From the NCBI GenBank assembly GCA_965230295.1, contig OZ246001.1, forward strand, positions 1,888,001-1,952,000: a DNA stretch of 64,000 nucleotides, in the 5' to 3' direction. Positions 2,312 to 49,640 of this stretch are shown here, one piece after another. A model generated the notes under the pieces. The model saw only the letters and a program-made list of their open reading frames with translations. It was not told where the DNA came from and did not search any database. A program made the position numbers and the translations under genes. Position 1 is the first letter of the stretch, and every line of letters begins with the position of its first letter. The stretch is from Marinicella sp. Lineage in GTDB: Bacteria; Pseudomonadota; Gammaproteobacteria; Xanthomonadales; Marinicellaceae.

Positions 2312-2592
2312 CTGCGAAGGAGTTACGGTTTTATGCATAGCAAAAAGAAGAGGCCTCGCAGCAAACCAGACCCATGTTGTCCCTTGGCAAGTACAGCGCG
2401 CCTAACAGGGCAACTCATCAATTTCTGCGGAGAGGTTATGGTTTGCATCGAAGATGCAAGAAGTGGCCTTGCAACAAACCAGACCGATGTTGTTCCTTGG
2501 CGAGCTAGCGAGTCAATTAGGACAACTCATTAAAGTCTGCGCAGAGGTTACGGTTTTTTGCATAGCAAAAAGAAGTGGCCTCGCAGCAAACT
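2312..2592. repeat. About 2.5 tandem copies of a ~112-bp two-hairpin unit
   Basis: Units start at about 2312, 2425 and 2537 (CTGCG..AG.TTAYGGTT..hairpin..AGAAG.GGCCTYGCA.CAAAC). The first two continue with ATGTTGTYCCTTGGC..CAACTCAT. Confidence 0.9.
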
Positions 2593-2594
2593 AA

Positions 2595-3560
2595 TTAATG
2601 ACGATGTGGCATGGGCTCTATACCCAACTTTTTGAACAGGGCCATGTCTTTGTTTTCTTCCGGGTTGGCTGTGGTGAGCAGCTTTTCACCGTAGAATATC
2701 GAATTGGCACCGGCAAAGAAACACATGGCTTGGACCGCTTCAGACATGTCATTGCGACCGGCCGACAAACGCACCATGGATTTGGGCATCATGAGGCGGG
2801 CCACTGCTATGGTGCGGACAAAATCCAATTCATCAATTTTATCGATGCCGTGTAAAGGTGTGCCTTTGACTTGCACCAAAGCATTGATCGGCACACTGCC
2901 CGGGTGTTGTTCCAGATTGGCCAGGGCCATCAGCATGCCGCCACGGTCACGTTGTGATTCACCCATTCCGACAATGCCACCTGAGCACACATTGATGCCT
3001 GAATCCTGAACATTTTTCAGGGTGTCCATGCGCATTTCAAATTTACGTGTGGTGATGATCTTGTCGTAGTATTCTTCAGAGGTGTCGATGTTGTGGTTGT
3101 AATAATCCAAACCGGCATCAGACAACTTCTTAGATTGGTCAGGGGACAACATACCCAAAGTCAGGCAGGTTTCCATGCCCAGGGCTTTGACACCTTTGAC
3201 CATATCAATCACCTGATCTAAATCACGGTCTTTGGGGCTGCGCCAGGCTGCGCCCATACAAAAACGGGTGGCGCCTTGTTCTTTGGCCAAGCCTGCTTGT
3301 TCAACCACAGTATCAACCGCCATCAAAGGTTCAGCTTCGACCTCGGTTTCGTAACGAACTGATTGGGGGCAGTAGTTACAATCTTCTGGACAAGCACCGG
3401 TTTTGATGCTCAGTAAAGTGCTGATTTGTACGTGATTGGGATTGAAATATTCACGGTGCATCCGGTGTGCTTGAAACAACAAATCATTGAAAGGTAAGGC
3501 AAATAATTGTTCGACTTCTTCGATGGTCCAATCGTGGCGAATGTGCTGATTTTCAGGCAT
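2595..3560 (-). CDS. bioB: Biotin synthase
   Basis: Radical SAM motif CPEDCNYC, plus [27 protein letters not shown] and [13 protein letters not shown]. Start placed at the ATG of [11 protein letters not shown]. Confidence 0.97.
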
Positions 3561-3589
3561 GTTGATCCAGTGAAATTTCAAAAATATGA

Positions 3590-3618
3590 AGTATGCGATG
3601 TGCAGGCTAAATAGTCAA
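3590..3618 (-). promoter_or_regulatory. Sigma70-type promoter of bioB
   Basis: Minus strand reads TTGACT-17 bp-CATACT, ending about 30 bp upstream of the bioB ATG. Confidence 0.55.
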
Positions 3619-3659
3619 TGTTTGTCGCAGTCAAATTATTTTCCAATGCTCACCAGGCT

Positions 3660-3691
3660 AAAAAAAGCAGCAAGGGTTGACGAATTGCTGC
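3660..3691 (-). terminator. Rho-independent terminator of the sugar dehydrogenase-like gene
   Basis: Minus strand GCAGCAA-loop-TTGCTGC followed by a T run. Confidence 0.65.
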
Positions 3692-3714
3692 CCCAGGTCA
3701 AATCAGGTTTTTAG

Positions 3715-4908
3715 CTATTCAAAATCATCCGCAAAAATCATGTCATCGGCTAAAGTTGGCCCAGTGATTTTCAGCAACCCAGACCAGGCCACTGCATACA
3801 ATTCGCCATCCTCGCTTTCGCCCATGCTGGTGACTGCAAAACCGCCAATCAACACACCCATATCAAAAAATTCCCAGCCATTGGTGGTTTCACGTGCCGC
3901 AAAATACCTGCCATCACACCAATCTGTAAACAAATACCAACCGTACAGTCCTGCATAATCTGAACCGCGGTAGCGATAGCCACCCACGGCGGTACAGAAA
4001 TTGCTACCAGGTTGGTCATGTTGTAGTGCTGCTATGGGTAAATCATTGGGGCCATTGCTGTCACAACCTCCTAGCCCTGAAAAGTCAGCCCCCTCAAAAC
4101 AAGGCCAGCCATAGTTTTGACCACCACTGCCAGCCGGTGTGTGATTGAATTCTTCCCAAGTGTCTTCGCCCACATCGCCAATGAACAGGTCTCCATTGAT
4201 TCGGTCATGGGATATCCGCCAAGGGTTGCGTAAACCACTGACCCACACTTCATCGGCACCTGTTGTATTGGCATATGGGTTGTCAGCTGGAATGGCATAG
4301 TTTCTGTCACCATCACCCGGGAAGTCATCGCCATCCACATCTATGCGCAAAATCTTCCCTAACAGGCTGTCTAAATCTTGTGATGCCATGGGGTCACCAC
4401 TGCCATCTCCAGAACTGATGTATAAAAAACCATCAGTTGGGCCAAAGCTTAAATCGCCGCCGTTATGAGCGCCAAAGGGCTGCACAAAGGTTAACACCAT
4501 TTGAGCGGAAGCGGGGTTGGCCACATTGATGTCACCTGCTGATACACTGTACCGCTCAATCACCGAATCACCGCTTAAGTCGGTGTAATAAACATAGAAA
4601 AAGCCGTTATTGGCGTAATTGGGATGAAAGGCCAGGCCGAGCAATCCACGCTCTCCTCCGGATGTGATGATGGCACTGATGTCTAAAAATGGCGTGGCCA
4701 AATGAATGCCATTCTCAACCACTTTGATTTGTCCACCTTGTTGAGTGACAAACAAGCGATCACTGCCATCACCCGCGTTGGTCACACTGACTGGATTGGT
4801 GAATCCGTTGGCCACATCTTCGGTACCTAAAAAGGCCGGCTGAGCGACGGCAACTCCGGTGAACAACATGGATATTACCCATGCGACAATCATTGATTTA
4901 TTTTTCAT
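3715..4908 (-). CDS. Secreted PQQ-dependent sugar dehydrogenase (GSDH family beta-propeller) with C-terminal DxIFxxxFE tail
   Basis: Signal peptide (AVA-Q). Motifs GERGLLGLAFHP, HNGG, GKILRID, GLRNPWR, DVG and NYGWP. Ends DDMIFADDFE. Confidence 0.85.
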   Translation of the reverse strand: MKNKSMIVAWVISMLFTGVAVAQPAFLGTEDVANGFTNPVSVTNAGDGSDRLFVTQQGGQIKVVENGIHLATPFLDISAIITSGGERGLLGLAFHPNYANNGFFYVYYTDLSGDSVIERYSVSAGDINVANPASAQMVLTFVQPFGAHNGGDLSFGPTDGFLYISSGDGSGDPMASQDLDSLLGKILRIDVDGDDFPGDGDRNYAIPADNPYANTTGADEVWVSGLRNPWRISHDRINGDLFIGDVGEDTWEEFNHTPAGSGGQNYGWPCFEGADFSGLGGCDSNGPNDLPIAALQHDQPGSNFCTAVGGYRYRGSDYAGLYGWYLFTDWCDGRYFAARETTNGWEFFDMGVLIGGFAVTSMGESEDGELYAVAWSGLLKITGPTLADDMIFADDFE

Positions 4909-4937
4909 ACCCCACCTTTTTTAAGGTTAATTATTTA

Positions 4938-5225
4938 GGGATGCCCTTGGGTCTTCATTCATTTTTGTTACCGATAAAAATGAAAGCGACCTCGGCGAGC
5001 ATATCTCTCTACTTCGGACGAGCTACGGTATTCAAGTAAGGCTTCTTGGCTTAACGCCAAACCGCCATACTTTCATTGCCTGCTCTTGCCCCCTCTGACT
5101 GGCCTATATGGATGTAGGTCTGTCGCGCTAGCAGGATGCGGAAGCGACCAGTTTCACTTCACGGCTGATCGGCCATTACGTAATTACTTCTTTGCTCTGC
5201 AAAACCGCAATTACTTCATAGCCTG
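4938..5225. repeat. Mosaic of palindromic modules
   Basis: The 4938-5017 module is shared with 9725-9890. Minus-strand CGGTT..AGAAG hairpins at 5042-5064 and 5187-5207. GGA-loop hairpins CCTATATGGATGTAGG and GCAGGATGC. Confidence 0.75.
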
Positions 5226-5363
5226 CCTAACCGAGTGCGCCGGTCGAACTGATGGCCCGTTCTCCATTGTTATGTACAGCTGAACTGCACTTGTTTTCCA
5301 GGCTGATCAGTCTAATTACAGTGTCATTGGTCGTCTAGGGGTAAAGGTATGAACGGTAAAAAA

Positions 5364-5780
5364 TTAAGGCTTAACGGTATTTGGTTTGGGATTCAATATG
5401 ACGAAAATATAGACGCCAACAAGCACGTCGAATGACACACAAGCCCACGCATACCAAATGGGTACCACCTCTTGAATGGGGCCGTAAAGGTGTAAAAACA
5501 CATCCCAAACAGGGTGTAACAACCAGCCGATTGCCAGCCAGTTGATGTGGTGTTTAAATGACAGCAGGTAGAACAGACCGTACACAACAATTCCACTGAG
5601 TTCAGTCAATAAGTGCTCATGTTGATTTTGTATGAGGGCCATCAATGGATAAATCAAGGCAGCTATGATCAAAGCCCTGCCCAACAGTTTGTGACTGGCT
5701 CGATTGGGTAGTTGTTTGGCATACCACAACAAAAAAATGGCCCCGATCAAACCCAGGAACAGGTACAACAATATCAGCAT
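5364..5780 (-). CDS. Small integral membrane protein (DUF6010-like)
   Basis: 4-5 hydrophobic helices. GWLLHPVWD and PIWYAWACVSFD motifs. Confidence 0.6.
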   Translation of the reverse strand: MLILLYLFLGLIGAIFLLWYAKQLPNRASHKLLGRALIIAALIYPLMALIQNQHEHLLTELSGIVVYGLFYLLSFKHHINWLAIGWLLHPVWDVFLHLYGPIQEVVPIWYAWACVSFDVLVGVYIFVILNPKPNTVKP

Positions 5781-5878
5781 GTGTTTGGATGGAGCTGCAT
5801 GGATTCACTTTAACATAAACGCTTCGCAAGCCAGATGATTCTGTTAAAATCATCAGCTGTTCATACATTTTACCGCTC

Positions 5879-6505
5879 ATGGCAGTTCACGAAATCACCC
5901 ACCCTTTGGTGCAACATAAAATAGGTTTGCTGCGACACAAAGACATTGCAGTCCAGGACTTCCGCACCATCGTTTCTGAAATTGGCGTGTTGTTGACCTA
6001 CGAAGCAACGCGACATTTATCCATTAAAAAACGAACCATTCAGACTTGGGCTGGAGAAACAGAAGTTGAAAAAATAAGCAACAGTCAAATTTCAGTGGTA
6101 CCCATCCTCAGGGCCGGCTTGGGCATGTTGGATGGTGTATTGAAAATGCTACCTGGAGCCGGGGTGTCGGTGGTGGGCTTTGCCCGCAATGAAGAAACTT
6201 TAGAAGCCGAAGCCTATTATGAAAAATTGGTCACAAACATCCAGGATCGTGAAGTGATTGTGGTAGATCCCATGTTAGCCACAGGTGGTACTTTGGATGC
6301 CACATTGGATTTATTAAAACAAGCGGGATGTAAAAAGATCACCGGCATATTCTTGGTGGCTGCACCGGAAGGCTTGGCCCGGATTGAAGACAAGCACCCG
6401 GATGTAGATATCTATGTGGCGGCCATTGATGATCACCTCAATGACCAAGGGTATATCTTACCCGGGCTGGGCGATGCAGGTGATAAGATTTTTGGTACTT
6501 TGTAG
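5879..6505 (+). CDS. upp: Uracil phosphoribosyltransferase
   Basis: Motifs [27 protein letters not shown] and [17 protein letters not shown]. Confidence 0.97.
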
Positions 6506-6525
6506 CCTATTTAAGCCGACAATTC

Positions 6526-7239
6526 ATGTTGTTCACATCACTCAGGTTTTTACTTTTAAAAATTCTACTTGGGCCGGTTATGCTGATTCAAGGGTGGTGG
6601 GTGCGCAGAAACACACCTGTATTACCTGAACCTGTCATTCACAAAAAAGGTCAGGTTGGTACAGGACCACCATTTAGACTGTTGCTGGTAGGTGACTCTT
6701 CTGCAGCAGGTGTTGGAGCGCCCTGTGCAGAGCAATCTTTGTTGGGTGAGCTGCTGGCGTTGTTGAGAAAAGACCATCAAGTCACTTATCACATGCTGGC
6801 AGAAACAGGCAAAACAACAGCAGAAATATTAATGGATTTGGTGGATGAACCTGCTGAACATCATGATTTGGTTGTCACTGCTTTGGGTGTCAATGATGTG
6901 ACCTCACAAGTCCCACTGAACAAATGGTCAGAACAACAAAAAGCATTGATAAACACCATCAACAGTAAATTTTCACCCAATCAGTTGATCATGTCAGGGC
7001 TGCCACCTGTGCGGGAATTTCCTGCCTTGCCATGGCCATTGAATGCTTATATGGGCGCTTATGCCGATCAATTGAATAAGATGTTGGTACAAATAACAAC
7101 GGCACATGAAGGTGTTGAATTCTTGAGTTTACGTGGTTATCCAGATGAGGCAAAAGCGGCGACAGATGGATTTCATCCCGGGCCAACGGTGTACCGCCTG
7201 TGGGCACAAAACATCGTTGCTGCCATCGATATCAAATAA
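6526..7239 (+). CDS. SGNH/GDSL family hydrolase
   Basis: Catalytic blocks GDSSAAGVG, LGVND and DGFHP. Confidence 0.9.
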   Translation: MLFTSLRFLLLKILLGPVMLIQGWWVRRNTPVLPEPVIHKKGQVGTGPPFRLLLVGDSSAAGVGAPCAEQSLLGELLALLRKDHQVTYHMLAETGKTTAEILMDLVDEPAEHHDLVVTALGVNDVTSQVPLNKWSEQQKALINTINSKFSPNQLIMSGLPPVREFPALPWPLNAYMGAYADQLNKMLVQITTAHEGVEFLSLRGYPDEAKAATDGFHPGPTVYRLWAQNIVAAIDIK

Positions 7240-7261
7240 GCAGAATGTTATAATTTCTATC

Positions 7262-8317
7262 ATGTTGAACCAACTTCTCAGTCAAAAGACCCAACAACGT
7301 CTGGCAGAAATTTCTACAGCTTTTGCCACAGCTGAACCTTTCAAGCATGTGGTAATAGATGATTTTTTCGAGTCTGATTTTTGCCAACAATTGGTTGATC
7401 AGTTTCCTGAATTTAAAGCACGTGATGCGGTGGATGAAAACCAAACTTTGGGTAAAAAGGCAGTGGTACAAACGGTCAGCCAGTTGGGCAGTGCTTACCA
7501 AAAATTGGATCAGCTGGTGCAAAGTGAGGCGTTTTTATCTGCCATTGAGAACATAACGGGCATCCAACACCTGGTATACGATCCACATTATATTGGTGGT
7601 GGGACTCATAACAACATGGATACGCAAGAGCTGGATCCGCATGTAGATTTCACTCACCATCCGATAACCAGTCACCACCGCAGGCTGAACTTGATTGTGT
7701 ATTTAAACCACGAATGGGAAACCGAATGGGGGGGTAACATTGAATTTCACCGCAATCCGAGATTGCCGGTTGCTGAAGACCAGATCACCAGTGTAAGGCC
7801 GTTGTTTAACCGGGCTGTTATTTTCGAAACCCACAACCATTCCTGGCATGGTTTTCCACCCATTAAGTTACCCGCCGACAGAAAGGACATCAGCAGAAAA
7901 TCATTTGCCCTTTATTATTACACCAAGCAAAGAACCAAGGGTATTGAGCCGCATTCGACCATATATGTTGAAAGACACTTGGCAGAAAAATTCAAACCAG
8001 GCCGATCATTGAATGAAGCAGATGTCAGTGAGCTGCAAACTTTATTGAATCGAAGGGATCAACATTTGGAACGACTGTATAAGAACATCACCGCCCAAAC
8101 CAAACAAATCAGCCAGTTACAAGCTGAGGTTTCAACATTGAAATTTTTGGCAGGTGATTCCTCTCAACAAGAACAAGACATCATGCGAAAGATGAAACTG
8201 TTGAGTTTTGATGAAACCCGTTTATTGAACCGGGTCCAGGAATTGGAAAATTCCACTTCCTGGAAGATCACAGCACCGTTGCGCAAAATCAAAAGTTGGA
8301 TCAGCCGGAACCGGTGA
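7262..8317 (+). CDS. 2OG-Fe(II) oxygenase with C-terminal coiled coil and SWKITAPLR motif
   Basis: PFKHVVIDDF, HxD (PHVDF), RRLNLIVYLN, SWHG and RKS. Heptad-rich tail ends STSWKITAPLRKI. Start placed at ATG 7262. Confidence 0.85.
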   Translation: MLNQLLSQKTQQRLAEISTAFATAEPFKHVVIDDFFESDFCQQLVDQFPEFKARDAVDENQTLGKKAVVQTVSQLGSAYQKLDQLVQSEAFLSAIENITGIQHLVYDPHYIGGGTHNNMDTQELDPHVDFTHHPITSHHRRLNLIVYLNHEWETEWGGNIEFHRNPRLPVAEDQITSVRPLFNRAVIFETHNHSWHGFPPIKLPADRKDISRKSFALYYYTKQRTKGIEPHSTIYVERHLAEKFKPGRSLNEADVSELQTLLNRRDQHLERLYKNITAQTKQISQLQAEVSTLKFLAGDSSQQEQDIMRKMKLLSFDETRLLNRVQELENSTSWKITAPLRKIKSWISRNR

Positions 8318-8318
8318 A

Positions 8319-9647
8319 TCAATCCTCAATTGTTTTTTCATAGACTTGTGGTTGGCCCCAGCCCCTTAATTCCAGACTTTCAATGTGGCTTTGTTCATTG
8401 AGTTTGAACTGTATTTTGACTTTGGCCAGGTTCAGTTTGAAAGTGTCATCGCCGATGTAGGTCATGGCATATTTGGGTTGTTTGGGTGCAATGAAAAACA
8501 GGCGATCGTTGCGTCGTTCGATGGCTATGGTTTTGTCAGTTTCAGACTGTTTAAAACGTCCTGTGTACAAAGTCAGTTGATCCACATCGATTGAGACGGG
8601 AAAGTCGTGTTGTTTCATGGCTTGGTTGGGGTCCATCATGTGAATGACAATGTCATCAACGTTGGTGTTGTGGTTGGTCATGGCGGCCACCACTTTCTGT
8701 TGTTTTGGATCAATCATCAACATGGATCGGAATCCGCCCGTACCACCATTGTGCCAAAGGACACCATTGGGATTGAAGTGCCAACCTAATCCCACGCGCA
8801 AACGACCCTGTTCATAGTGTGAGCTGGTGGCTAGGTCCATGGCCTCACGCATGGCACCAGCAGGTTGGTTCAAATGAGCCACCCCATATTTGACTAAATC
8901 GTGAATTGAACTGCGGATGGAGCCTGCACCAGCCAAAGCTTTGAATTGCCAAGCATTGCTGGGCTTGTTACCCATATACCCTTGGGCCAAAATTGCTTCA
9001 GGCACTTCTTCCAGCAACATGTAAGTTTGCTTTAAATCCAACGGCTCAAGGATGTTGGTTTTGACCAATTCATTGAACGGTCTTTGGTCAATGACTGCCA
9101 TGGTTTCCCCCAATAAACCGGTCGCAAAATTGGAATAGGCATAGGTTTCTCCTGCATTGACCGGTTTGGCTTTGTTGATGCCTTCCAGCAAAGTTTCTCG
9201 ATCGTAGTCGGCATAGGGGTCGTTTGAAAAAGACGACAAGTTACTCGGTATTCTGGGCAGACCAGAGGTGTGGGTGGATAATTGTTTGAAGGTGATGGCT
9301 TGATGGTTGTTGTCTTCCAGCTTGAAAGGTTGGGGCCAGAAGTCCTGAACAGCATCATCTAAAGTCAACGCCTTGGCTTGGACTTTCTGTGCCAGTAACA
9401 GCGCAGTAAAAGTTTTACTGATGGAGCCAATTTCATAAACTGAGTTTTCGCTGGCGTGTAGATTCAACGCTTTGTTCTGCAACCCTTTTGTATAGAAATG
9501 CATGACTCCTTGGTCATAGACACCGACCACAATGGAAGGGTTTATTCCGTGTTCGATCCGTTGATCAATTTCTTTGATGACATCAGCAGGAATTTGAGCT
9601 GAGGCCATGCCACAGGTGAACAACATCAGTAAGATAATTTTCTGCAT
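8319..9647 (-). CDS. Secreted serine hydrolase (beta-lactamase class C/peptidase S12 family) with C-terminal DUF3471-like domain
   Basis: Signal peptide. SxxK (GSISK), YxN (YSN) and HNGGTGGF. Confidence 0.9.
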   Translation of the reverse strand: MQKIILLMLFTCGMASAQIPADVIKEIDQRIEHGINPSIVVGVYDQGVMHFYTKGLQNKALNLHASENSVYEIGSISKTFTALLLAQKVQAKALTLDDAVQDFWPQPFKLEDNNHQAITFKQLSTHTSGLPRIPSNLSSFSNDPYADYDRETLLEGINKAKPVNAGETYAYSNFATGLLGETMAVIDQRPFNELVKTNILEPLDLKQTYMLLEEVPEAILAQGYMGNKPSNAWQFKALAGAGSIRSSIHDLVKYGVAHLNQPAGAMREAMDLATSSHYEQGRLRVGLGWHFNPNGVLWHNGGTGGFRSMLMIDPKQQKVVAAMTNHNTNVDDIVIHMMDPNQAMKQHDFPVSIDVDQLTLYTGRFKQSETDKTIAIERRNDRLFFIAPKQPKYAMTYIGDDTFKLNLAKVKIQFKLNEQSHIESLELRGWGQPQVYEKTIED

Positions 9648-9724
9648 GTCTGTCAGGTTTGAGTGAATGAGTCAGTAATTTTAAACCAACATCGACCAGA
9701 AGGCATGGTGCTGAAGTCATATAT

Positions 9725-9940
9725 GGAATGTTCTTGGGGCTTCATTCTGGTTTATGGTCTGACAGGTCTTCATATTTGCTGCGCAAATAAACCGACCTTT
9801 ACAGGCTATTGTCTGAGCAGTTGCTTCGCACTGCATGTCTGTTCAAGACAAAAGTGAAAGCGACCTCATCAAACATATCTTGCTACCTCGTGCGCTTCGC
9901 CTCTGATTCGCTTCGCTCACCAACCGGCTCGGCGGGTCAA
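9725..9940. repeat. Palindromic repeat mosaic related to 4938-5017
   Basis: GGAATGTTCTTGGGGCTTCATTC ... TGAAAGCGACCTC..CATATCT matches the 4938 module. Contains a nested minus-strand CGGTT..TGAAG hairpin (9768-9794) and several GCTTCGC (GCGAAGC on the minus strand) mini-hairpins. Confidence 0.75.
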
Positions 9941-10062
9941 GCAGTTAAACAGCTCTCCTTTGGTAGGCCCAGCAAATAACAAACGTGACCAACAGCACTA
10001 TATTTTCACTCCCCAGTGTTTAAAATGTTTGTTTTTTTAGATTTGAAATCGGAGCGTAAATT

Positions 10063-10821
10063 ATGAAGAGCAAATTATTAGCAGCAGTGGCCTTGGTCAG
10101 TACATCATGGATGTCACAGGCTGAGTTAACCCTGGACGGCGTGCTGGAAGCTTACATTGAAGCCAGGGGTGGTATGGAAGTGATTGAAAGCATGGACACC
10201 ATGAAAACAACCGGCAAAATGACCATGGGTGCGATGGAAGCACCTTTTGCATTTACTTACAAATCTCCAGACAAAATTTACACCACTTTCGAGATTCAAG
10301 GCATGAAAGGCATCCAGGCATACGATGGTGAAAAAGGCTGGCAAATCATGCCATTTATGGGCAAAACTGAAGCGGTTGAAATGTCTGAAGATGAGTTAAA
10401 GCAAGTCAAAGACCAGGCTGACATTGAAGGTCCTTTGGTGAACCACAAAGCCAAAGGCATCACCTTGGAGTTGGTTGGCAAAACTGAAATTGAAGGCACG
10501 CCAGTGATTGAAATCAAAGCCACCAAAAAGAATGGAGATGTGGTGGATGTGTATCTGGATGAAGAGTACATGATTGAAGTGATGACCCGCACCAAAATGA
10601 AAATGATGGGCCAGGAAGTTGAAGCTGAAACATACTTCAGTGACTACAAAGAAGTGGGTGATGCAGCGGTACCTGTGGCTCACTCTATGGCAATTAAAAT
10701 GAACGGTGCTGTGGTTCAAAACCTGACCTTGGAAAACATTGAAATTAACTTGAATGTGGATGACTCATTATTCGCTATGCCCGCAGCTGCAGAAAAAGAA
10801 GCTGCTGAAACCACTGAATAA
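10063..10821 (+). CDS. Exported protein, LolA-like/outer-membrane lipoprotein-sorting-like fold
   Basis: Signal peptide. YIEARGG, YDGEKGW, FSDYKEV and C-terminal VDDSLFAMP are typical of this family. Confidence 0.6.
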   Translation: MKSKLLAAVALVSTSWMSQAELTLDGVLEAYIEARGGMEVIESMDTMKTTGKMTMGAMEAPFAFTYKSPDKIYTTFEIQGMKGIQAYDGEKGWQIMPFMGKTEAVEMSEDELKQVKDQADIEGPLVNHKAKGITLELVGKTEIEGTPVIEIKATKKNGDVVDVYLDEEYMIEVMTRTKMKMMGQEVEAETYFSDYKEVGDAAVPVAHSMAIKMNGAVVQNLTLENIEINLNVDDSLFAMPAAAEKEAAETTE

Positions 10822-10836
10822 TACGGAGTCATAACC

Positions 10837-19126: not shown

Positions 19127-19128
19127 GG

Positions 19129-39415: not shown

Positions 39416-39431
39416 TTGTTAGATTCATCAG

Positions 39432-39892: not shown

Positions 39893-39999
39893 TTTTCGAA
39901 TTAAATAATCAAACAAAACCATCTGTATTCGACGTAATCCCAGTAGAAGATCCACATAACTCTGTTATAAAATAATGACTTTCAACTCAGCAATAACGA

Positions 40000-40929: not shown

Positions 40930-40973
40930 TTATGAAATGTACAGGCTGATCCTATAGCGAATGCCAAATCCGT

Positions 40974-42194: not shown

Positions 42195-42227
42195 TAAAAT
42201 ATAGATTCAACAAAACCATAAAGATTG

Positions 42228-42581
42228 ATGAATCAATTGTTTCGCTGGCAACCAGGACCACAATTGTCGGGTTACGACAAAATGCTGTTGTTGGGCAGCC
42301 GTTGGTTGATCAAGTTTGATGTCTATTTATTGCGATTCAATCCGGGCAGTGAAATCAAACCACACACCGATCAGGTCAAAATTGGCAGACATTACCGTTT
42401 AAATTGGGTTCTGAAAAAAGCCAAACAAGGCGGTGAATTTGTATGCGCAGATCCCATCTATGCCAGTAAACGCATCAAACTCTTTCGTCCTGACATCAGT
42501 GAACACAGTGTCACAAAAGTAATCGAGGGCAAGCGGTATTTATTGAGTATCGGCTGGGTAAGAAGACCAAAACAGGAATAA
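42228..42581 (+). CDS. Small 2OG-Fe(II) oxygenase-like protein
   Basis: PHTD, GGEF, FRPD..EHSV and RYLLSIGW. Confidence 0.75.
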   Translation: MNQLFRWQPGPQLSGYDKMLLLGSRWLIKFDVYLLRFNPGSEIKPHTDQVKIGRHYRLNWVLKKAKQGGEFVCADPIYASKRIKLFRPDISEHSVTKVIEGKRYLLSIGWVRRPKQE

Positions 42582-42583
42582 TT

Positions 42584-42985
42584 ATGGCTAAATTAATAAC
42601 ATGGGGATGCGGTTTGTTTTTTATTGCGTATGGCATCGGGTTCGTGTTTTTTCCTGAGCTCCTGTCACAATGGATCACTGAAAGTGTTCCTGAAACAAGT
42701 TCAGGGGTCACTGACATGCGAGCCACTTACGGGGGGATGTCTGTTGCCATGGGTCTGACCATCCTGTTGTTGGCAATGCATGAGGGTCAGTTAACCCTGG
42801 CATTGCTGGTCACAGGGCTGGTGTTGTGGTCGATGGCCATTGGACGAATCATTGGCATGGTCATAGATGGAGAACCCAATTGGGTGATGACTATTTACCT
42901 GGTGACTGAATGCCTGTTTGGAGGCCTGGCTTTGTGGTTGTTTGGAGTCGAAAAGAAGAAGGCACCAGGAGGGGACCAAACATGA
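42584..42985 (+). CDS. DUF4345-like membrane protein
   Basis: DMRATYGG and GRIIGMVIDG, 4 TM helices. Confidence 0.75.
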   Translation: MAKLITWGCGLFFIAYGIGFVFFPELLSQWITESVPETSSGVTDMRATYGGMSVAMGLTILLLAMHEGQLTLALLVTGLVLWSMAIGRIIGMVIDGEPNWVMTIYLVTECLFGGLALWLFGVEKKKAPGGDQT

Positions 42986-43389
42986 AAAAAGTCTTTTTTT
43001 ATGGCCTGTTTATGGATCCTGACTTCCTTGAGGAAAAGGGCCATAACCCCAAAAATGTTCAGCTGGTTTATTCAAATGGTTATCAATTGATCATTGGTGA
43101 AAAAGCATCACTCCTACCAAAAGCAGGCGCCAAAGCCTATGGCACAATTATGGATTTGCAGACTGATGAATTAAACCTGTTGTATGCCGCTGAGGGTGTG
43201 CAAGATTACGTCCCTCAAGCGTTGCACGTTCACACCATGTCAGGTAAAAGATTGGAAGTTCTTTGTTACATTTTACCCAAGGATAAAATGGCAGGCAGTA
43301 ACAGTGAATATGCCAGGCAACTTGCAAAAGTGGCTGAACAATTAGGCTTGCCAGAAAGTTACATTGAAGAAATCAAAACATGGGTATAA
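42982..43389 (+). CDS. Gamma-glutamylcyclotransferase family protein
   Basis: VFFYGLFMD N-terminal motif and LGLPESYI tail. ATGA overlap with the previous gene. Confidence 0.8.
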   Translation: MKKVFFYGLFMDPDFLEEKGHNPKNVQLVYSNGYQLIIGEKASLLPKAGAKAYGTIMDLQTDELNLLYAAEGVQDYVPQALHVHTMSGKRLEVLCYILPKDKMAGSNSEYARQLAKVAEQLGLPESYIEEIKTWV

Positions 43390-43429
43390 GTGGGTCACTG
43401 AGGTATGAAATTAATTGGAGGGTAATCGC

Positions 43430-43855
43430 ATGATCAATGAAACCAATCAAGGGGGTTGTCTTTGTGGGGCTGTTCGTTACGAAGTCAAAGGGCCCTTGCG
43501 TGATGTGGTGAATTGTCATTGCTCCATGTGTCAAAGGTTGCATGGTAATTTTGGTCCTCACAGCAAAGCGCGCAAAGAGCACATAACAGTCACCAACGAC
43601 GAAGGGTTGGCTTGGTACAAAACATCCGATACAGCCAGACGCGGCTTTTGTCGCAAATGTGGTTCAAGTTTGTTTTGGGAACCTTTCGAGCTGGATGCCA
43701 CGGGCATCATTGCCGGAACTTTGGATGTGCCAACAGGATTGAAAACCATGGGACATATTTTTGTCAGTGAAAAACCGGATTTCTATGACATCGCTGACGA
43801 CCTGCCACAGTTCGAACAATCCTCTGAAGGTCAGTTAAAGGATGATTACAAATAG
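43430..43855 (+). CDS. GFA (CENP-V) family Zn protein
   Basis: GGCLCGAVRY, CHCSMCQR and RGFCRKCGS. GGAGGG RBS. Confidence 0.92.
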   Translation: MINETNQGGCLCGAVRYEVKGPLRDVVNCHCSMCQRLHGNFGPHSKARKEHITVTNDEGLAWYKTSDTARRGFCRKCGSSLFWEPFELDATGIIAGTLDVPTGLKTMGHIFVSEKPDFYDIADDLPQFEQSSEGQLKDDYK

Positions 43856-43925
43856 TTACAGGATGCAAACAAAAAAATAACTTTGTGGTTGTTACCATTG
43901 AGGTCCATCAGAAAAGGAACATTCA

Positions 43926-45605
43926 ATGTACATCAAAGCGTTTATTTTATTGGTGGTGGCAGCCACCCAGACCCATGGACTTTCACTCAGTCATGTATTT
44001 CAAGACCCCGAAACATTCGACCCCAAAGCTTTTGATATGGGGAACTCCCAAACTGTTTTGTTGAATGATCGCATCCTGTTTGCTGGACGGTCTGACCAAG
44101 GTTCTGCCTTGTGGGCACTGGACATCAACACCCTGGAAAAAACCGTGTTGCAAACCGGTTATGCCACCAACGGTCGCATTGAATTCATTCGATTAGGTGA
44201 TGAAGTGTTTTTTAAATTCAACACTGATGTCAACTCAGGCGCCCAGCTTTGGCATTCAGACGGCACTGTGGCAGGAACACAATTGTTCGCAGAAGGCATG
44301 ATGAGCGATTTTGTGCCATTAAAAAAATCAGGTGATGTTTTGATAGGGGTAAGACAAGAGTTTGGTGGCCAAGCCCAGTTGGTGGTGACTGATGGCATTG
44401 ATCTTGTGGTGCATGCTGCAGAACCCACTTATTCTGAGCAAATATGTGCATACAGCCCTGACTTGATCTTGATGCATGACAGCACTGGTGATTTTCCGGT
44501 GTATCGTCGATCGACTTCAACCACATCTGAAGTGTTGGACATACCAGTGCCTGATGATTTTATCAGCTATCAGACCGACCTGGTTTCGCACCATGGAGCT
44601 TGTTATGTGATTGCCTACGATGGCAGCTCCAATCGTGGTGGTGAGTTGTGGGAAATCGAGGCATCAGGCCAGATCAACAACATCAGTGAACGTTTGGATT
44701 TGGACGATCCAATCAAAAATGTGGTCTCCCATGACGGTGGCTTGTACATCAAAACCACAGGCATCAACGCCAAAATCCATTTGTTGAATAACCACCTGAA
44801 CAAAATTTTGGCATCACGAGATTTTTATTTCAGTACTTTTTTGTTTTCTCGTGGGCCTTATCTGGTCAGTATGGCCTTTCCAACCACTTCACCACCGACC
44901 ATCACTTTGGATTTTTTGCGCAGTGATTTATCTGAGTCAGTAGAAACATTTAGCGGGTATCGAGGTCCATCGCCACGTAACCCACCAGATTTTTTTGACA
45001 GCAATGGTCAATGGGTGATGGCCAAGACCACCAGAACAGGTCAGCTTGAACCAATCGAGTCAGTGGTATTTAACCCTTTCGAGACAACCGAAAAAACATT
45101 GAATTTACCGCAAATGACCCGGCATCAAGTGATCTCAGCTACAGATCAGGATCGGCTGTTCGTGTTGTCTTTGGATCAGGAATACAGGGGTACTTTGTTT
45201 GAAGTAGAGGACACACCGAGTATAGGGCCTTCCATTGATGGTAGTTGGATAGACCCAAATCTCAAAAACCAGGGTTTGATGCTCAGAACGGGAGAGCGAC
45301 AAGATGGTTCGGAATACTTGATAGCTACGGTATATACTTTCCAAAACGGACACCCATTCTGGTTGGCTGGTGTGGCCAACATTGAACCCTTGATGAAAAC
45401 CATTTCGGTAGAAATGTTCTCTTTTGACGGTATTGATTTTTTTGAACCTGAAATTCAGCCGGAACAATCGGCATTTGGTCGATTGACTTTGGAGATGACT
45501 GCCTGTCATACATTGGACATGGTGTTAATAGGTGAAAACACCTCAGAAGTACATACCCTTTTGCGGGTGGATGATGTCAAAGCCACGAAGTATTGTACAG
45601 ACTAG
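43926..45605 (+). CDS. Secreted beta-propeller-like protein with an ELWxxDGT-type repeat and a C-terminal GSWxDP domain
   Basis: Signal peptide. QLWHSDGTVAGT and GELW. C-terminal SIDGSWIDP..QG..YTF..GHPFWLAG. Confidence 0.65.
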   Translation: MYIKAFILLVVAATQTHGLSLSHVFQDPETFDPKAFDMGNSQTVLLNDRILFAGRSDQGSALWALDINTLEKTVLQTGYATNGRIEFIRLGDEVFFKFNTDVNSGAQLWHSDGTVAGTQLFAEGMMSDFVPLKKSGDVLIGVRQEFGGQAQLVVTDGIDLVVHAAEPTYSEQICAYSPDLILMHDSTGDFPVYRRSTSTTSEVLDIPVPDDFISYQTDLVSHHGACYVIAYDGSSNRGGELWEIEASGQINNISERLDLDDPIKNVVSHDGGLYIKTTGINAKIHLLNNHLNKILASRDFYFSTFLFSRGPYLVSMAFPTTSPPTITLDFLRSDLSESVETFSGYRGPSPRNPPDFFDSNGQWVMAKTTRTGQLEPIESVVFNPFETTEKTLNLPQMTRHQVISATDQDRLFVLSLDQEYRGTLFEVEDTPSIGPSIDGSWIDPNLKNQGLMLRTGERQDGSEYLIATVYTFQNGHPFWLAGVANIEPLMKTISVEMFSFDGIDFFEPEIQPEQSAFGRLTLEMTACHTLDMVLIGENTSEVHTLLRVDDVKATKYCTD

Positions 45606-45608
45606 GGT

Positions 45609-46265
45609 CTAGTTAACAGGCTTGTCTTTGTTCTGACAGCTGCACTTAGGCCCCATAAACAACCGTTCAACAATAATCTCAGCCGCTTTCTGGCTACCGG
45701 CTCTGGAAGGGTGAAAACGGTCTGAAGAATAATATGAATAATCGCCGGTGTTATCGATGTGTTGTTTCCAGTGGTAGCCAACAGGTATCAAGATCGCATT
45801 GTTGGCGTGGGCACCGGCGGTGTAATTGCTGATGACTCCGGGGAAACTGAAATACCTGGGAATTGAAGGCCACACCATAAAATAGGCCAGCTGCGCATTG
45901 TTCTCGGCACACAATCGGGCGTAATCAGCACCGCCATTGACCAACATCTCATAGCCATCAATTTGCGAAGAGGGGCCTTGTTGAATCACCACAAAATCAA
46001 ACGAATTGTTGCGCACCAGGTTTTGTACCCGGCCATCAGCCCAGTGATCGACAATTGCATAGCCATTCTTGACCACCTTCTGGGTATTCACCGTGATCCC
46101 CAAAGTTGCGGCATGCTGCCGCACCAATTTAGGCAAATCATTCGAACCGGTTAAACTGTTGCCCACAAACAGCACATGGTATTCAGGTTGTGTCGATTTT
46201 TTCAAAGCCACATCGGCATATCCCAAATTCCAGATAACCACCAAAGCCCAAAACCAAATTTTCAT
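45609..46265 (-). CDS. Secreted SGNH/GDSL-like hydrolase
   Basis: VLFVGNSLT, VVIQQ, PVG and DRFHPS. Confidence 0.8.
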   Translation of the reverse strand: MKIWFWALVVIWNLGYADVALKKSTQPEYHVLFVGNSLTGSNDLPKLVRQHAATLGITVNTQKVVKNGYAIVDHWADGRVQNLVRNNSFDFVVIQQGPSSQIDGYEMLVNGGADYARLCAENNAQLAYFMVWPSIPRYFSFPGVISNYTAGAHANNAILIPVGYHWKQHIDNTGDYSYYSSDRFHPSRAGSQKAAEIIVERLFMGPKCSCQNKDKPVN

Positions 46266-46346
46266 ATCTCAATCCACAATAAAAGTATGACAACCAAGAT
46301 ACCGATCAGGAACAAAAAATACCTTCGGGAAAGTTCCTTTTTGATG

Positions 46347-46450
46347 GATTGCTTCGCAAATGCTTCTTTCCCCTTCGGGAAAAACCGCAATTGCTGTGCA
46401 GAATAAGATGAGCTTTCTGCTGACAAGCTTGCTTGCGAACTGAAAACATG
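46347..46450 (-). repeat. Diverged inverted copy of the two-hairpin unit
   Basis: Minus strand ATGTT..CTCAT-C..TCTGC..CGGTT-TTTCCC-GAA-GGGGAA-AGAAG..GCAATCC, collinear with the 2374-2480 unit junction. Confidence 0.7.
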
Positions 46451-46496
46451 GTGTTCATGTTCGACCTTCTTGCTAATGCCTTTTGGTTTGCTCTTT

Positions 46497-46524
46497 CGTC
46501 ATACCGGCGAAGGCCGGTATCCAG
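46497..46524 (+). repeat. CGTC-tagged REP
   Basis: CGTCATACCGGC-GAA-GGCCGGTATCCAG palindrome. Confidence 0.8.
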
Positions 46525-47109
46525 TATCTTTCAGAATGAACACAGAATCATAAAGTCATTCCAATATAGCGATAACCTAACAGACATTGGCAGCAGTTGT
46601 TCCCTACAATTTACTGCATTTCTCATATCCATGTGGGCTGATTGCGGTCTGTGCCGCAACGACGATATTAGTGTACTTTTGAATCATTCAGAAATATTGA
46701 GAAGTATAAGCATGATCAAAATGCACATTAATACCCTTATTATTGAGATAAAAAGCATTGGTGCACATCTAATAAATTGTTCTGCGTAAGATAGAGAGTG
46801 ACTGATTTACCTGAAAATTTACTTTTAAATATTGCAGATTCTGAAATTGAAGTTCTTTATGTTCCACATGAGTCATGGGTACTAAATTTGGCAACGTTGC
46901 CGAATCAATTGAATATAGGAAAAATGCATAACAAGTAAAGGCCACGGATAAACTGCTGTTTTAGGCTTCGTTAGGGCCTTAAAACCATATGAAAGAGCAT
47001 GATCGAAACTGCCCAAAATATGAGGGCAGAGTCGTTGAGCAAAAACGAAGATACATGGGGTTTTTCAACTATACAGGGACATATCTAGCAGGTGGAATAT
47101 CCACGTGAT

Positions 47110-48714
47110 TCACTTTTGTGGTTGATCCTCATAGCCATTCCTAAACACAGTATCATTACCAAACACTATATAGCTGGCTCCCGAATTGGAGTTACCGTTT
47201 ACGTCTGCACGAAAAGCGCCAATAATCACATCATCGATGCCATCACCATTGACATCACCAGCTGCGCTGACAGAAGCACCACTTTCATCACCTGCTGCTG
47301 CACCATTCAGTGCAAAACCATCCCTTCCATCAAGAGCAGACAAATCTACAGGGCCTGAAAGATCACTGGCCCCAAATACCACATAGCTAGTACCAGCATT
47401 GGAATCATTATTTGGATCTGCCAAAGGAGCACCAATAATCACATCATCGATGCCATCACCATTGACATCACCAGCTGCGCTGGCAGAAGTACCACTTTCA
47501 TTATCTGATGGACCGCCGTTGAGTACGAACCCATCAGTTGCATTAAGGTTAGAAAGGTCTATAGAAGCCGAAAAACTACTGGCCCCAAACACCACATAGG
47601 CTTCACCGGCCTCAATCATGCCATTTGGGTTTGCCAAAGGAGCACCGATAATCACATCATCGATGCCATCACCATTGACATCACCAGCTGCGCTGACAGA
47701 AACACCACTGTAATCACCGGCTGCGACGCCATTGATGGCAAAACCATTGCTTCCATCAAGAGTGGTTAGGTCTATTGAAGCAGAAAATCCACCGGACTTT
47801 CCAAACACCACGTAGCTGCTGCCAGCATTGGAATTATTGTTGGGGTCTGCCAAAAGAGCACCAATAATCACATCATCGAAACCATCACCATTGACATCGC
47901 CTGCTGTGTCTACAGAAGCACCACTTTCATCGTAACTACCGGCACCATTGATGACAAAACCATTGCTTCCATCAAGGGTGGTTAGATCTATTGAAGCAGA
48001 AAATCCACCGGACTTTCCAAACACCACGTAGCTACTGCCAGTATAGTAATTATTATTTGGGTTTGTGTAAGGCGCGCCAATAATCAAGTCATCAAAACCA
48101 TCACCATTAACATCACCAGCAGCGCTGACAGAATAACCGCTTTCATCATAAGCTTCCTCACCATTGAGGACAAATCCATTACTCCCATCTAGGCTGGACA
48201 GATCCATAGAAGCAGGAAAATCAGTTCGGCCTAACACCACATAGCTGCTCCCCGAACGGCTACCATTCGGATCTGCCAAAGGAGCACCAATAATCAGGTC
48301 ATCAAAACCATCACCATTAACATTACCAGCAGCGCTGACAGAATAACCGCTTTCATCATTAGCTGCCGCACCATTCAGGACAAAACCATTGACCCCATCA
48401 AGGGTGGAAAGATCCGTGGAAAAAGAAAATCCACCCGTTGTTCCAAACACCACATAGCTTCTCCCCGAACGGCCACCATTCGGAGCTGCGCTAGGCGCTC
48501 CAATAATCAGATCACCAATCCCATCACCATTAACATCACCAGCAGCGCTGACAGAATAACCGCTTTCATCATTAGCTGCCTCACCATTCAGGACAAAACC
48601 GTTGGACCCATCAAGATCAGATGGGTCCAGTTCAGGCAGAAACTGTGCACAGACCGATTGGTGAACCAAGGCCAAAGCGACTGATGCCACCAGCTTTTTA
48701 CGTTTTACTTTCAT
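47110..48714 (-). CDS. Secreted FG-GAP (integrin alpha-like) seven-repeat beta-propeller protein with DTVFRNGYE tail
   Basis: Signal peptide. Seven G[DN]VNGDG[IF]xD[LV]IIGA repeats. GGAGG RBS. Confidence 0.92.
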   Translation of the reverse strand: MKVKRKKLVASVALALVHQSVCAQFLPELDPSDLDGSNGFVLNGEAANDESGYSVSAAGDVNGDGIGDLIIGAPSAAPNGGRSGRSYVVFGTTGGFSFSTDLSTLDGVNGFVLNGAAANDESGYSVSAAGNVNGDGFDDLIIGAPLADPNGSRSGSSYVVLGRTDFPASMDLSSLDGSNGFVLNGEEAYDESGYSVSAAGDVNGDGFDDLIIGAPYTNPNNNYYTGSSYVVFGKSGGFSASIDLTTLDGSNGFVINGAGSYDESGASVDTAGDVNGDGFDDVIIGALLADPNNNSNAGSSYVVFGKSGGFSASIDLTTLDGSNGFAINGVAAGDYSGVSVSAAGDVNGDGIDDVIIGAPLANPNGMIEAGEAYVVFGASSFSASIDLSNLNATDGFVLNGGPSDNESGTSASAAGDVNGDGIDDVIIGAPLADPNNDSNAGTSYVVFGASDLSGPVDLSALDGRDGFALNGAAAGDESGASVSAAGDVNGDGIDDVIIGAFRADVNGNSNSGASYIVFGNDTVFRNGYEDQPQK

Positions 48715-48939
48715 AGTTAACCTCCAAATGACATCCTGAAAAGGTTTGAATGTTCACTCTGCATCTATTGCAGATGGTATGAATTTTCAGCACAAAATTT
48801 TCAGTATCAGAATCAGATTCACCCTAATTATGTAAGTTGCAAATAAAAAACACCTGATGAAGGTCTATGCTTTTCCTGATTTCATTGTTGTGTGATCAAA
48901 ATTGAATGTCCACTGGTCTATGGAATGTATGACTTGGTA

Positions 48940-49110
48940 TTGGGGCCGTATTCCAAACAATGGAAAAAAGTGAAGTTCCTGGTGGATCATGGCTTTAATT
49001 TTCAAAAAGTGTATCGTAAAGGAGGGGCTGTTTGGTCGCGCGAACGGTACCCACAAAACCTAGAACAGGCCAAAGAATTTGTTATTAAATTCAAGGGTCA
49101 GGCTTTTGAT
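48940..49110 (+). pseudogene. Probable C-terminal fragment of a small hypothetical protein
   Basis: KQWKKVKFLVDHGF..RYPQNLEQAKEFVIKFKGQA looks protein-like, but there is no convincing start and the ORF runs into a REP. The similarity is recalled, not searched. Confidence 0.35.
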
Positions 49111-49174
49111 TTTGGTTGGTGGGTCTTGTTGAAAAGAGTTCTGGTTAATCCAAATCCTGATGCCAGAAAAACGT

Positions 49175-49275
49175 GTCATCCTGAGTGCAGCCAAAGGATC
49201 TCCTGAGTCTGGAGCGTTGTTTAAAAGAAATGCTGGAACGTGTTTGGGAGATTCCTTCACTCGTTCGGAATGACG
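49175..49275. repeat. GTCATCCTGAG-type REP doublet (same family as the GIY-YIG flanks)
   Basis: GTCATCCTGAGTGCAGCCAAAGGATCTCCTG ... GGGAGATTCCTTCACTCGTTCGGAATGACG. Confidence 0.88.
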
Positions 49276-49339
49276 GCATTCATATAGGTGTGTCTATCAA
49301 ATTAGTTTGATTCTTTTGCAAGCTGTTACATCACGCACC

Positions 49340-49368
49340 TGGATCCCGGATCGGGGTCCGGGATGACG
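49340..49368 (-). repeat. CGTC-tagged REP
   Basis: Minus strand CGTCATCCCGGACCCCGATCCGGGATCCA. Confidence 0.8.
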
Positions 49369-49487
49369 ATGTTTGGGTTTGTAATAATTGCGGTTTCCCT
49401 GGATGGAAAAGAATTATTAATATTGAGTATTGATCATATGGCAGCTGCCAAATGGAGCTTGTCAGCTGTAGACTCAATTTAAGCTTG

Positions 49488-49640
49488 GGGAGAGGTTACG
49501 GTTTTAAATTGAATTTGCGTCATAAGCATAAAAAATACCCTTATGACGCTGGTTGGCGAGCTTGCGAGCCAGATAAGCGGCTCATCAATGTCTAAGTAGG
49601 GAGTGCGGTTTTCAGCTTTGCTGAAAGAAGCGCTCCCGAA
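49488..49640 (+). repeat. Diverged copy of the two-hairpin unit downstream of slyD
   Basis: Partial GAGAGGTTACGGTT, then TTGGCGAGCTTGCGAGCCA..CTCATCAATGTCT, then GGGAGTG-CGGTT-TTCAGC-TTT-GCTGAA-AGAAG-CGCTCCC. Confidence 0.75.

Follow-up and report, generated by a model that had tools for sequence, protein, structure and literature searches.

The window analysed here, a stretch of 64,000 nucleotides of the Marinicella sp. genome (contig OZ246001.1 of assembly GCA_965230295.1, positions 1,888,001 to 1,952,000; G000:C1:1,888,001-1,952,000 in our numbering, in which G000 is this genome), contains eight copies of a small hairpin with a fixed core of mismatched purines, which we call the GG/AA hairpin. 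The genome is a single contig of 4,008,074 bp with 44% G+C. A preliminary description of the window, drawn from its letters, had pointed to a recurrent architecture of outer stem, CGGTT, inner stem, short loop, inner stem', WGAAG and outer stem'; all of the copies that it cited exist, eight of them fit our model, and the analysis confirms a real family of dispersed structured hairpins that occurs above chance. Model-based counts throughout come from a single covariance model, R1, which recognises eight copies in the window; a simple pattern search recognises six. As seven of the eight belonged to the training set of R1, they match it by construction, and the copy at 2318-2358 alone lies outside that set.

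Three of the copies lie on the plus strand in a tandem array (2322-2591; 2.4 copies of a 112-nt unit, found by Tandem Repeats Finder with period 112 and 74% matches) between two minus-strand genes, assigned by Pfam to an aminotransferase (884-2032) and a biotin synthase-like protein (2598-3581), and the array is antisense to both. The first copy, at 2318-2358 (25.0 bits, expectation value (E) 1.4e-5), is degenerate, with one A.A mismatch in its inner stem; the second, at 2431-2471 (38.7 bits), reads TGGTT, with T for C before GGTT, and has the loop GAA; the third, at 2543-2583 (46.1 bits), has the loop ATA and a calculated DNA fold of -8.2 kcal/mol (z -4.1), with -5.9 kcal/mol for its complement. 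Minus-strand copies follow at 5034-5072 (45.4 bits; four-base loop GTTA), 5179-5215 (42.7 bits; loop AGA) and 9760-9802 (29.8 bits), the last of which has T.T in place of T-A beside the core and belongs to a 40-copy TGAAG sub-family. The copy at 46355-46395 (minus strand; 45.6 bits; loop GAA) is of the two-rod type described below, with a stretch resembling the second rod, hairpin A, before it, and the remaining one (49598-49638, plus strand; 44.1 bits; loop TTT) lies 12 nt past the stop codon of an FKBP-type isomerase gene (49653-50183, minus strand) and antisense to it. The inner stems, outer stems and three-base loops listed in the earlier account hold on reading the sequence. The degenerate copy that it placed at 49391 is legible by eye (49385-49425, plus strand) but has no R1 match at E<=1.

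An invariant mismatch core within covarying stems

On the folding strand, an outer stem of 8-9 pairs is followed by C, GG, TT(T), a variable inner stem of 3-5 bp and a loop that is usually of three bases, and the second arm runs through inner stem', (A)AG, AA and G into outer stem'. In the fold the C pairs with the last G, GG stands opposite AA, and the first T forms a wobble with G; what was first described as an internal loop is a tandem purine-purine mismatch (G.A, then G.A or A.A) beside an invariant T.G wobble. In the genome census a frequent variant of the core has GA replacing GG.

The strict pattern occurs 108 times in the genome, 82 times with an outer stem of at least five pairs. The internal control was the set of all hairpins that combine five outer pairs with an inner stem of 4-7 pairs and a loop of 3-4 bases, whatever the 4x4 interior block, so long as no more than two pairs form within it. 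This set held 5,463 hairpins, 5,224 of them distinct, spread over 4,746 block types at a mean of 1.1 per type, and the commonest type was GGTT/AGAA, with 18 distinct sequences and 45 copies. The runner-up (13 distinct) was the same motif offset by one base, and all other types had at most seven, the reverse complement of GGTT/AGAA standing at 7 distinct and the GATT variant at 4. A looser test, which counted any tandem 2x2 mismatch in any hairpin, placed GG/AA merely fifth (42 distinct), so the enrichment signal requires the flanking TT/AG. The control set also contains an interior block TCAC/ACAA, with 7 distinct hairpins and 10 copies of the same architecture, which may be another small family.

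The stems, by comparison, vary. Alignment A1 comprises 29 distinct hairpins, chosen through a filter by which outer pairs 5-9 and at least three inner pairs had to form, and across it the core is invariant (29/29) at eight positions, G10, T12-T14, A28 and G30-A32, while every stem position turns over. In the alignment so filtered, 90.9% of cells are paired as against 61.2% in shuffles, changes occur on both sides in 14 of the 17 pairs, and the covariation score of 0.736, as against 0.189 in shuffles, was reached by none of 500 shuffled alignments; when the partner is slid by one to three columns, pairing falls to 39-54%. Outer pairs 2-4, on which the filter did not act, still pair in 25, 25 and 28 of the 29, with five or six pair types each, and one outer stem was found with at least seven different inner stems across species. 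Selection on structure together with a fixed mismatch core, as first proposed from the window, is thus borne out by the block excess, by the covariation and by the strand asymmetry described below.

Distribution in the genome and among related bacteria

A census by pattern counted 149 copies in the genome, comprising 50 distinct sequences in 76 loci, with 122 of the 149 outside the open reading frames (ORFs) of a crude map. The largest sub-families of identical copies have 40, 23 and 13 members, the first being the TGAAG sub-family, which was counted by pattern. R1 yields at least 118 matches at E<=0.01 among the best 150 of ~2,500 first-look candidates, which were those scored, and the 40-copy TGAAG sub-family is not among them.

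Matches to R1 occur in 22 of 23 Marinicella genomes, at 3 to 125 per genome, G003 being the member of the genus without hairpins. They occur also in the single genome of the sister genus and in one genome each of three other families of the order; the 13 further genomes of the order that were searched with R1 gave none, and in 150 genomes from the rest of the class, one per family, there was a single weak match of 30 bits. The family is restricted to Marinicella and a few neighbouring families, and this distribution, the internal control and the covariation together exclude a frequency at chance level. High counts accompany the carrier element described below, which is present in G021 (125 matches), G019 (74), G023 (39) and G000, and is missing from G015 (21) and G024 (7). 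Many of the matches in G021 lie within ~150 nt of contig ends, from which we take these repeats to be a leading reason why short-read assemblies of Marinicella break up, and the copy numbers of draft genomes to be lower bounds.

Rfam gave no match in the window at gathering thresholds, and at E<=1 six repeat-rich loci gave just two chance-level matches, to a vertebrate long non-coding RNA model, so that no Rfam family matches the hairpin at either. A search of openly available articles for Marinicella repeats and for Ssn nucleases yielded no description of the family.

Two-rod units and sites at gene ends

The unit of the array at 2322-2591 has two rods: the second rod, hairpin A, is joined through a TCATYAA linker to the GG/AA hairpin, after which comes a GCAGCAAAC tail. 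Units of this kind, 105-112 nt long, recur elsewhere in the genome and in other species, and form short tandem arrays at gene ends. The rest of such a unit precedes the copy at 49598-49638 in the window: by eye, 49484-49597 (plus strand) holds a truncated 5' half of a hairpin (~49484-49505), an inserted CGTC-type palindrome, hairpin A and the linker. Hairpin A contains a symmetric tandem G.A in CGAG/CGAG, and a hand-drawn structure on a MAFFT alignment has 74% of cells paired, with modest covariation and few compensations. RNAalifold, applied to 14 full units, recovered the GG/AA hairpin and not hairpin A; because of this, and because the covariation on the hand-drawn structure is modest, we regard hairpin A as a probable second structured rod. 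A further tandem repeat in the window (47215-48615; 6.6 copies of a 213-nt unit) lies inside a gene for a 534-aa FG-GAP repeat protein (47113-48714, minus strand); it is protein-coding and unrelated to the hairpins.

All hairpins of one locus are co-oriented, in 76 of 76 loci with none mixed, and their orientation relative to neighbouring genes is near random (38, 35, 29 and 20 over the four classes). Where species have a site in common, the hairpin runs antisense to the gene before it, which is the FKBP gene, ychF (in G000 and G015), polA, gpsA or a NUDIX gene. At the FKBP site the hairpin lies 12-20 nt after the stop codon in the window and in G021 and G004, and the same position and orientation are found in loci L045, L046, L049, L050, L051 and L053, making nine entries; as L045 and L046 are again contigs of G019 and G004, these represent no more than seven distinct genomes. 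From one species to another the stems at this site change, with full compensation. Among 19 Marinicella-type loci at this site, 6 are filled (E<=0.01), 3 are degenerate and the rest are empty, and in species that lack the element a plain terminator occupies the site. The sharing of this site by some species and its emptiness in others imply that gene-end sites are old in some lineages yet dispensable.

Position at a gene end is what might be expected of a structured RNA module, one that would fold in mRNA ends or as a small RNA and would there bind an RNA-binding protein or protect transcripts. In keeping with this, two species (G001 and G002) have the hairpin in sense orientation in the infC-rpmI spacer, a copy that follows a rotamase gene is likewise sense, and the upstream gene is co-oriented in 73 of the 122 intergenic copies. 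Against it, the hairpin is antisense to the sole adjacent gene at the five conserved sites, as the array at 2322-2591 is to both of its neighbours, no T-run follows the hairpin in the window copies as read, and lowering the Rfam threshold to E<=1 added nothing beyond chance. The rRNA operon likewise has no look-alike helix. Mimicry of rRNA was rejected on the same scan, in which a search of the operon for a helix with this core returned one implausible match on the wrong strand, and a ribosomal-protein operator was dropped because there is no rRNA look-alike and no hairpin copy in the infC-rpmI spacer of G000.

A carrier element without genes

Most hairpin copies in the genome lie in a non-coding carrier element with sharp, unlike left (L) and right (R) ends. 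We counted 70 left ends and 110 right ends, corresponding to 60 complete elements and ~50 solo right ends. Sizes range from 149 bp (15 copies) through 197-236, 300, 356, 420, 453 and 485 bp up to 633 bp, and copies differ by the presence or absence of whole rods of 64-66 nt, each copy having 0 to ~5 internal rods. A rod begins with a basal stem and a symmetric tandem G.A (TGA/GAA), continues as a stem of 9 bp up to the GG/AA core, and closes with an inner stem and its loop; hairpins sit near both ends of the element. The 60 complete carriers showed no target duplication, no inverted ends and no common target word in their flanks.

Two carriers lie in the window. The first, at 9724-9958 on the minus strand, belongs to the 236-bp type and has a diverged left end (its right end is at 1,897,723-1,897,742 of the genome), and occupies the divergent promoter region between genes at 8322-9647 (minus strand) and 10063-10818 (plus strand). 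The second, read by eye at approximately 4940-5262 on the minus strand, is diverged and contains the hairpins at 5034-5072 and 5179-5215 and a GTAG-type palindrome, and has a second copy near 3,614,340-3,614,663 of the genome. A further example is locus L002 (G000:248,650-249,450). The palindrome in the second carrier, which ends in a GTAG-type word (CCTACAT..ATGTAGG; window ~5100-5125, minus strand), is a recurrent module found alone and inside many carriers, and resembles the GTAG-bearing repetitive extragenic palindromes (REPs) of related orders.

No carrier contains a gene, the largest being 633 bp, and with no pair of left and right ends more than ~600 bp apart, no autonomous copy was found. 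Apart from paralogous genes, tuf and rRNA, a BLAST comparison of the genome with itself revealed nothing multi-copy longer than the 633-bp carrier, and it showed no insertion sequence in multiple copies. The sole gene bracketed by two elements encodes a 143-aa membrane protein without transposase features by eye, no family search having been made. The existence of 60 near-identical dispersed copies indicates, indirectly, that the carrier is mobile. The suggestion that the window holds part of a non-autonomous mobile family therefore survives, on this indirect footing and for an element with no gene of its own, as applied to the carrier; for the hairpin itself it is unsupported.

The same facts would be accommodated if the hairpin were a passive palindromic repeat with no dedicated reader, hitch-hiking in carriers and tandem duplications, its core kept by descent or by its own stability and its stems by template switching from arm to arm. 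That rods are cleanly present or absent between carrier copies, that most copies fall into a few identical sub-families (40, 23 and 13) and that sites are gained and lost between species (6 of 19 filled at FKBP; infC-rpmI occupied in G001 and G002 and not in G000) all suit such a repeat, as does the failure to find a partner, described below. Arm-to-arm correction, however, would also mend GG/AA and T.G, which are invariant in 29 distinct copies; the motif has persisted throughout the genus and in three further families; and the strand asymmetry to which we now turn needs selection on one strand. On balance we think a passive repeat rather unlikely.

Which strand folds, and in which molecule

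To compare the strands we used a filter that counts only Watson-Crick pairs and is thus neutral between them. In 53 distinct hairpins, some of whose features are shared by descent, the non-Watson-Crick positions of the stems comprised 46 G.T, 5 A.C and 80 others, and in A1 the count of G.T against A.C was 44 to 5. When seven window copies were folded with DNA parameters, the GGTT strand was favoured over its complement in all seven, by 0.3 to 3.3 kcal/mol. The excess of G.T and the better fold of the GGTT strand together argue that one strand is under selection to fold.

Strand-specific wobbles and covariation would be expected of an RNA module as well, and the loops bear on the choice of molecule. 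Among 50 distinct hairpins, 42 have three-base loops, 43 have loops closed by C-G and 27 have loops of the form G-N-A. C-GNA-G loops are exceptionally stable in DNA and have no such standing in RNA, in which selected hairpins usually have four-base loops, so the dominance of three-base loops speaks against an RNA module.

Orientation relative to replication points the same way. The origin was fixed by the minimum of cumulative GC skew (1,719,421) and by dnaA (1,721,237), and by lagging-strand polarity we mean that the folding strand is on the leading-strand template. The folding strand is so placed in 45 of the 60 complete carriers (binomial p 1.3e-4) and in 51 of all 76 hairpin loci. On the crude ORF map, 1,958 of 3,239 ORFs (60%) are on the leading strand, and carrier orientation has no link with the flanking genes. 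We read the carrier bias as an effect at the level of DNA, either counter-selection of hairpins on the lagging-strand template or a bias of insertion. Since carrier orientation follows replication and not transcription, it weighs further against an RNA module, which, with the gene-end evidence given above, we consider unlikely. Of the two alternatives left standing by the preliminary description, a motif in single-stranded DNA (ssDNA) or in RNA, ssDNA is the better supported, by the three-base loops, the strand asymmetry, the replication bias and the fold energies.

The search for a partner protein

It had been proposed that the motif is recognised by a protein, perhaps a HUH, GIY-YIG or reverse transcriptase nuclease encoded beside it. 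We found a single Y1 HUH gene in the genome, RAYT-like and encoding 187 aa (Y1_Tnp, 40.5 bits; L001 1300-1863, G000:1,669,261-1,669,824). It is bracketed by palindromes with GTCGAC/GTTGAC stems and TGAA/TTCA loops, a fourth hairpin family, and no GG/AA hairpin lies near genome position 1,669,000. Over 41 genomes Y1 does not track the hairpin: hairpin-free G003 has three Y1 matches, and none was found in the hairpin-bearing genomes G021 (125 copies; 99% complete), G019 (74), G015 (21), G024 and G030. Family searches of G000 for IS110, TnpB (by its zinc-ribbon domain), reverse transcriptase and DDE_Tnp_1 gave no match; a search for IS91 Y2 also gave none, but with control genomes equally silent this blank is uninformative. 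The genome has one rve transposase, and none of the mapped carrier ends is near it in the locus as viewed in an ORF list.

These results bear most directly on the idea that the hairpins are REPs or REPINs mobilised by a RAYT-type Y1 HUH enzyme, or are derived from an IS200/IS605 element. One RAYT-like gene does exist, and carriers that lack terminal inverted repeats and target duplications, have subterminal hairpins and are oriented relative to replication would suit such an origin. The palindrome beside the RAYT-like gene is, however, a different one, there is no TnpB, the 60 carrier left flanks have no common target word, and the replication bias is opposite in sign to that reported for IS200/IS605 elements. 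It is above all the phyletic mismatch, with Y1 missing from hairpin-rich genomes and present three times in a hairpin-free one, that largely refutes this origin and leaves it very improbable.

Small GIY-YIG nucleases were the other obvious candidates. Ssn enzymes are small chromosomal GIY-YIG nucleases, not transposases, that act on ssDNA only and on one strand, and the NTS or Ssn-related motifs associated with ssnA are strand-oriented hairpin repeats present in hundreds of copies (Chenal et al. 2025, main article, PMC11893778). Besides uvrC, the genome has four small single-domain GIY-YIG genes (Pfam GIY-YIG). One of these is in the window (55935-56219, minus strand; 95 aa; 68.5 bits) and has palindromes of the GTCATTCC and CGTCATCC types on either side, much as the main article describes for ssnA genes; the other three are at genome positions 1,617,932, 3,082,096 and 840,616. 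Three of the four have palindromes of their own, of the GTCAT, CGTC or another type, and one has none. Within 1.5 kb of these four genes the best R1 score was 16 bits, too low to be of note. At 2270-2297 of the window there is a GTCAT-type palindrome that resembles those flanking a GIY-YIG gene elsewhere.

The degenerate search pattern for Ssn-related motifs, as given in the Methods of PMC11893778, has 64 matches in the genome, as against ~11 expected from three shuffles of one megabase, and these overlap none of the 149 hairpin copies. Three of the matches are in the window, and two of them adjoin hairpin copies, at 46497-46524 (plus strand; CGTC-type, ~100 nt from the hairpin at 46355-46395) and 49339-49368 (minus strand). 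As these two fit the pattern from the published Methods, the neighbouring CGTC REPs can be regarded as Ssn-type motifs; that the hairpin often sits next to CGTC REPs was noticed at the outset, and the pattern of PMC11893778 now allows those REPs to be named.

Could the GG/AA hairpin itself be the substrate of an Ssn-type nuclease of divergent specificity, and so represent an unrecognised class of Ssn-related motif? The four genes, the canonical motifs beside hairpins at 46497-46524 and 49339-49368, and the varied specificities, one-strand action on ssDNA and strand-oriented repeats reported for the family in the main article (PMC11893778) would all be in keeping with this, and G019 and G004 have a GIY-YIG gene of 95 aa at a distance of ~300-560 nt from hairpin copies. 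That gene, however, is followed by a CGTC-type motif, the palindromes beside three of the four genes are their own, and the two GIY-YIG types tested over 41 genomes do not track the hairpin, one of them occurring in hairpin-free G003 and missing from hairpin-bearing G024. As none of the 149 copies overlaps the pattern, the GG/AA hairpin is not an Ssn-related motif by the definition in the published Methods, and we judge an Ssn-type reader of it improbable. Neither Y1 nor GIY-YIG genes are linked to the hairpin and no reverse transcriptase was found in G000, so the proposal of a nuclease partner from one of these three classes found no support; of the protein-recognised motif, the fixed core stands, and recognition is something that we infer.

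Discussion

The reading that we favour, tentatively and with confidence somewhat short of even, is that the GG/AA hairpins are REP-like modules, spread across the genus, that most likely act as ssDNA and whose core would be recognised by a chromosomal protein. We hold it no more firmly because no partner emerged and because passive persistence and a role in RNA each retain some likelihood. Several observations count against it. No partner protein was found among Y1 HUH, IS110, TnpB, reverse transcriptase and small GIY-YIG families. The pairing filter used for A1 inflates its figures for pairing and covariation, and many copies are identical by recent descent, so that copy counts overstate the number of independent events. 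The G.T wobbles and covariation suit RNA equally as well as DNA; the replication bias is weaker, and not significant, at hairpin loci outside carriers (13/19, p 0.17) and is not seen for solo right ends (27/50, p 0.67). Mobility of the hairpin itself is unsupported, and precise loss by replication slippage would explain the differences of whole rods between carriers equally well.

If REP-like modules acting as ssDNA are nonetheless the correct description, the fixed mismatch core would be the docking or cutting site of a structure-specific protein that is encoded in the chromosome and acts in trans. Copy number would grow through amplification of the carrier and through tandem duplication, and single copies would be gained and lost at little cost to the host, some of them persisting at one gene end across species. 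A stable hairpin on the lagging-strand template might be harmful, and counter-selection against it would leave an excess on the leading-strand template, although a bias of insertion would give the same pattern.

It is tempting to speculate further that the GG/AA hairpin might be the recognition site of a structure-specific ssDNA enzyme, neither Y1 HUH nor Ssn-type, that moves 65-nt rods and the gene-less carrier by a route coupled to replication, in which the moved strand would become lagging-strand DNA in the manner of an annealed oligonucleotide. We regard this as decidedly doubtful, but if true it would mean that DNA without genes has a novel means of spreading in a genome that has hardly any insertion sequences.

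Hairpin repeats of bacteria have twice led to new enzymes, REPs to the RAYT transposases and NTS repeats to the Ssn nucleases. The GG/AA hairpin adds a third, well-defined type to a genome in which RAYT-like and Ssn-type systems are both present. Should the hairpin have a reader protein, that protein would bind or cut ssDNA in a structure-specific manner, and its 40-nt target would be simple and portable; should there be none, the family would offer a clean case for learning how mismatches in palindromes are kept.

Comparison with known hairpin repeats

The GG/AA hairpin works like known interspersed hairpin repeats (REP/REPIN and NTS/Ssn-related motifs), yet in the comparisons made with each of these it falls outside them. 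With REPs, BIMEs and REPINs it shares the form of ~40-nt imperfect palindromes in tens to hundreds of copies, intergenic and mostly at gene ends, with no gene, arranged in mosaics with other modules and varying in copy number between related species. It differs from them in that its conserved word is a mismatch core inside the stem and not a word beside the foot of the hairpin. Unlike the hairpins of BIMEs, moreover, those of a locus are all co-oriented (76/76) and do not alternate, and unlike REPs with their RAYTs, the hairpin does not co-occur with the RAYT-like gene, which is flanked by another repeat.

Resemblance to NTS repeats and Ssn-related motifs, as the main article of PMC11893778 presents them, lies in their being strand-oriented DNA hairpin repeats, and Ssn motifs and GIY-YIG genes do occur in this genome and in the window. 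The GG/AA hairpin, however, has no GTC word 5' of its stem and has instead an internal purine mismatch core, misfits the pattern of the published Methods in all 149 copies, and flanks none of the four GIY-YIG genes. Integron attC sites were also compared by eye, and the words at the foot of the GG/AA stem are not reverse complements of each other.

The carrier has its own parallels. It resembles elements derived from IS200/IS605 in having no inverted ends and no target duplication, in having hairpins near both ends and in its orientation linked to replication, and differs from them in lacking a TnpA or TnpB partner (the one Y1 gene being RAYT-like) and a conserved target word, and in occurring in G019 and G021, which have no Y1; the sign of its replication bias, too, is the reverse of that of IS200/IS605. 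In overall construction it also resembles the BOX elements of pneumococci, in which fixed end modules enclose a variable number of internal modules. The carrier likewise has the same two ends throughout and from 0 to ~5 internal rods, giving its range of 149 to 633 bp, but its sequence and host are unrelated to those of BOX, and its internal modules are self-contained long hairpins, each built around a fixed mismatch core.

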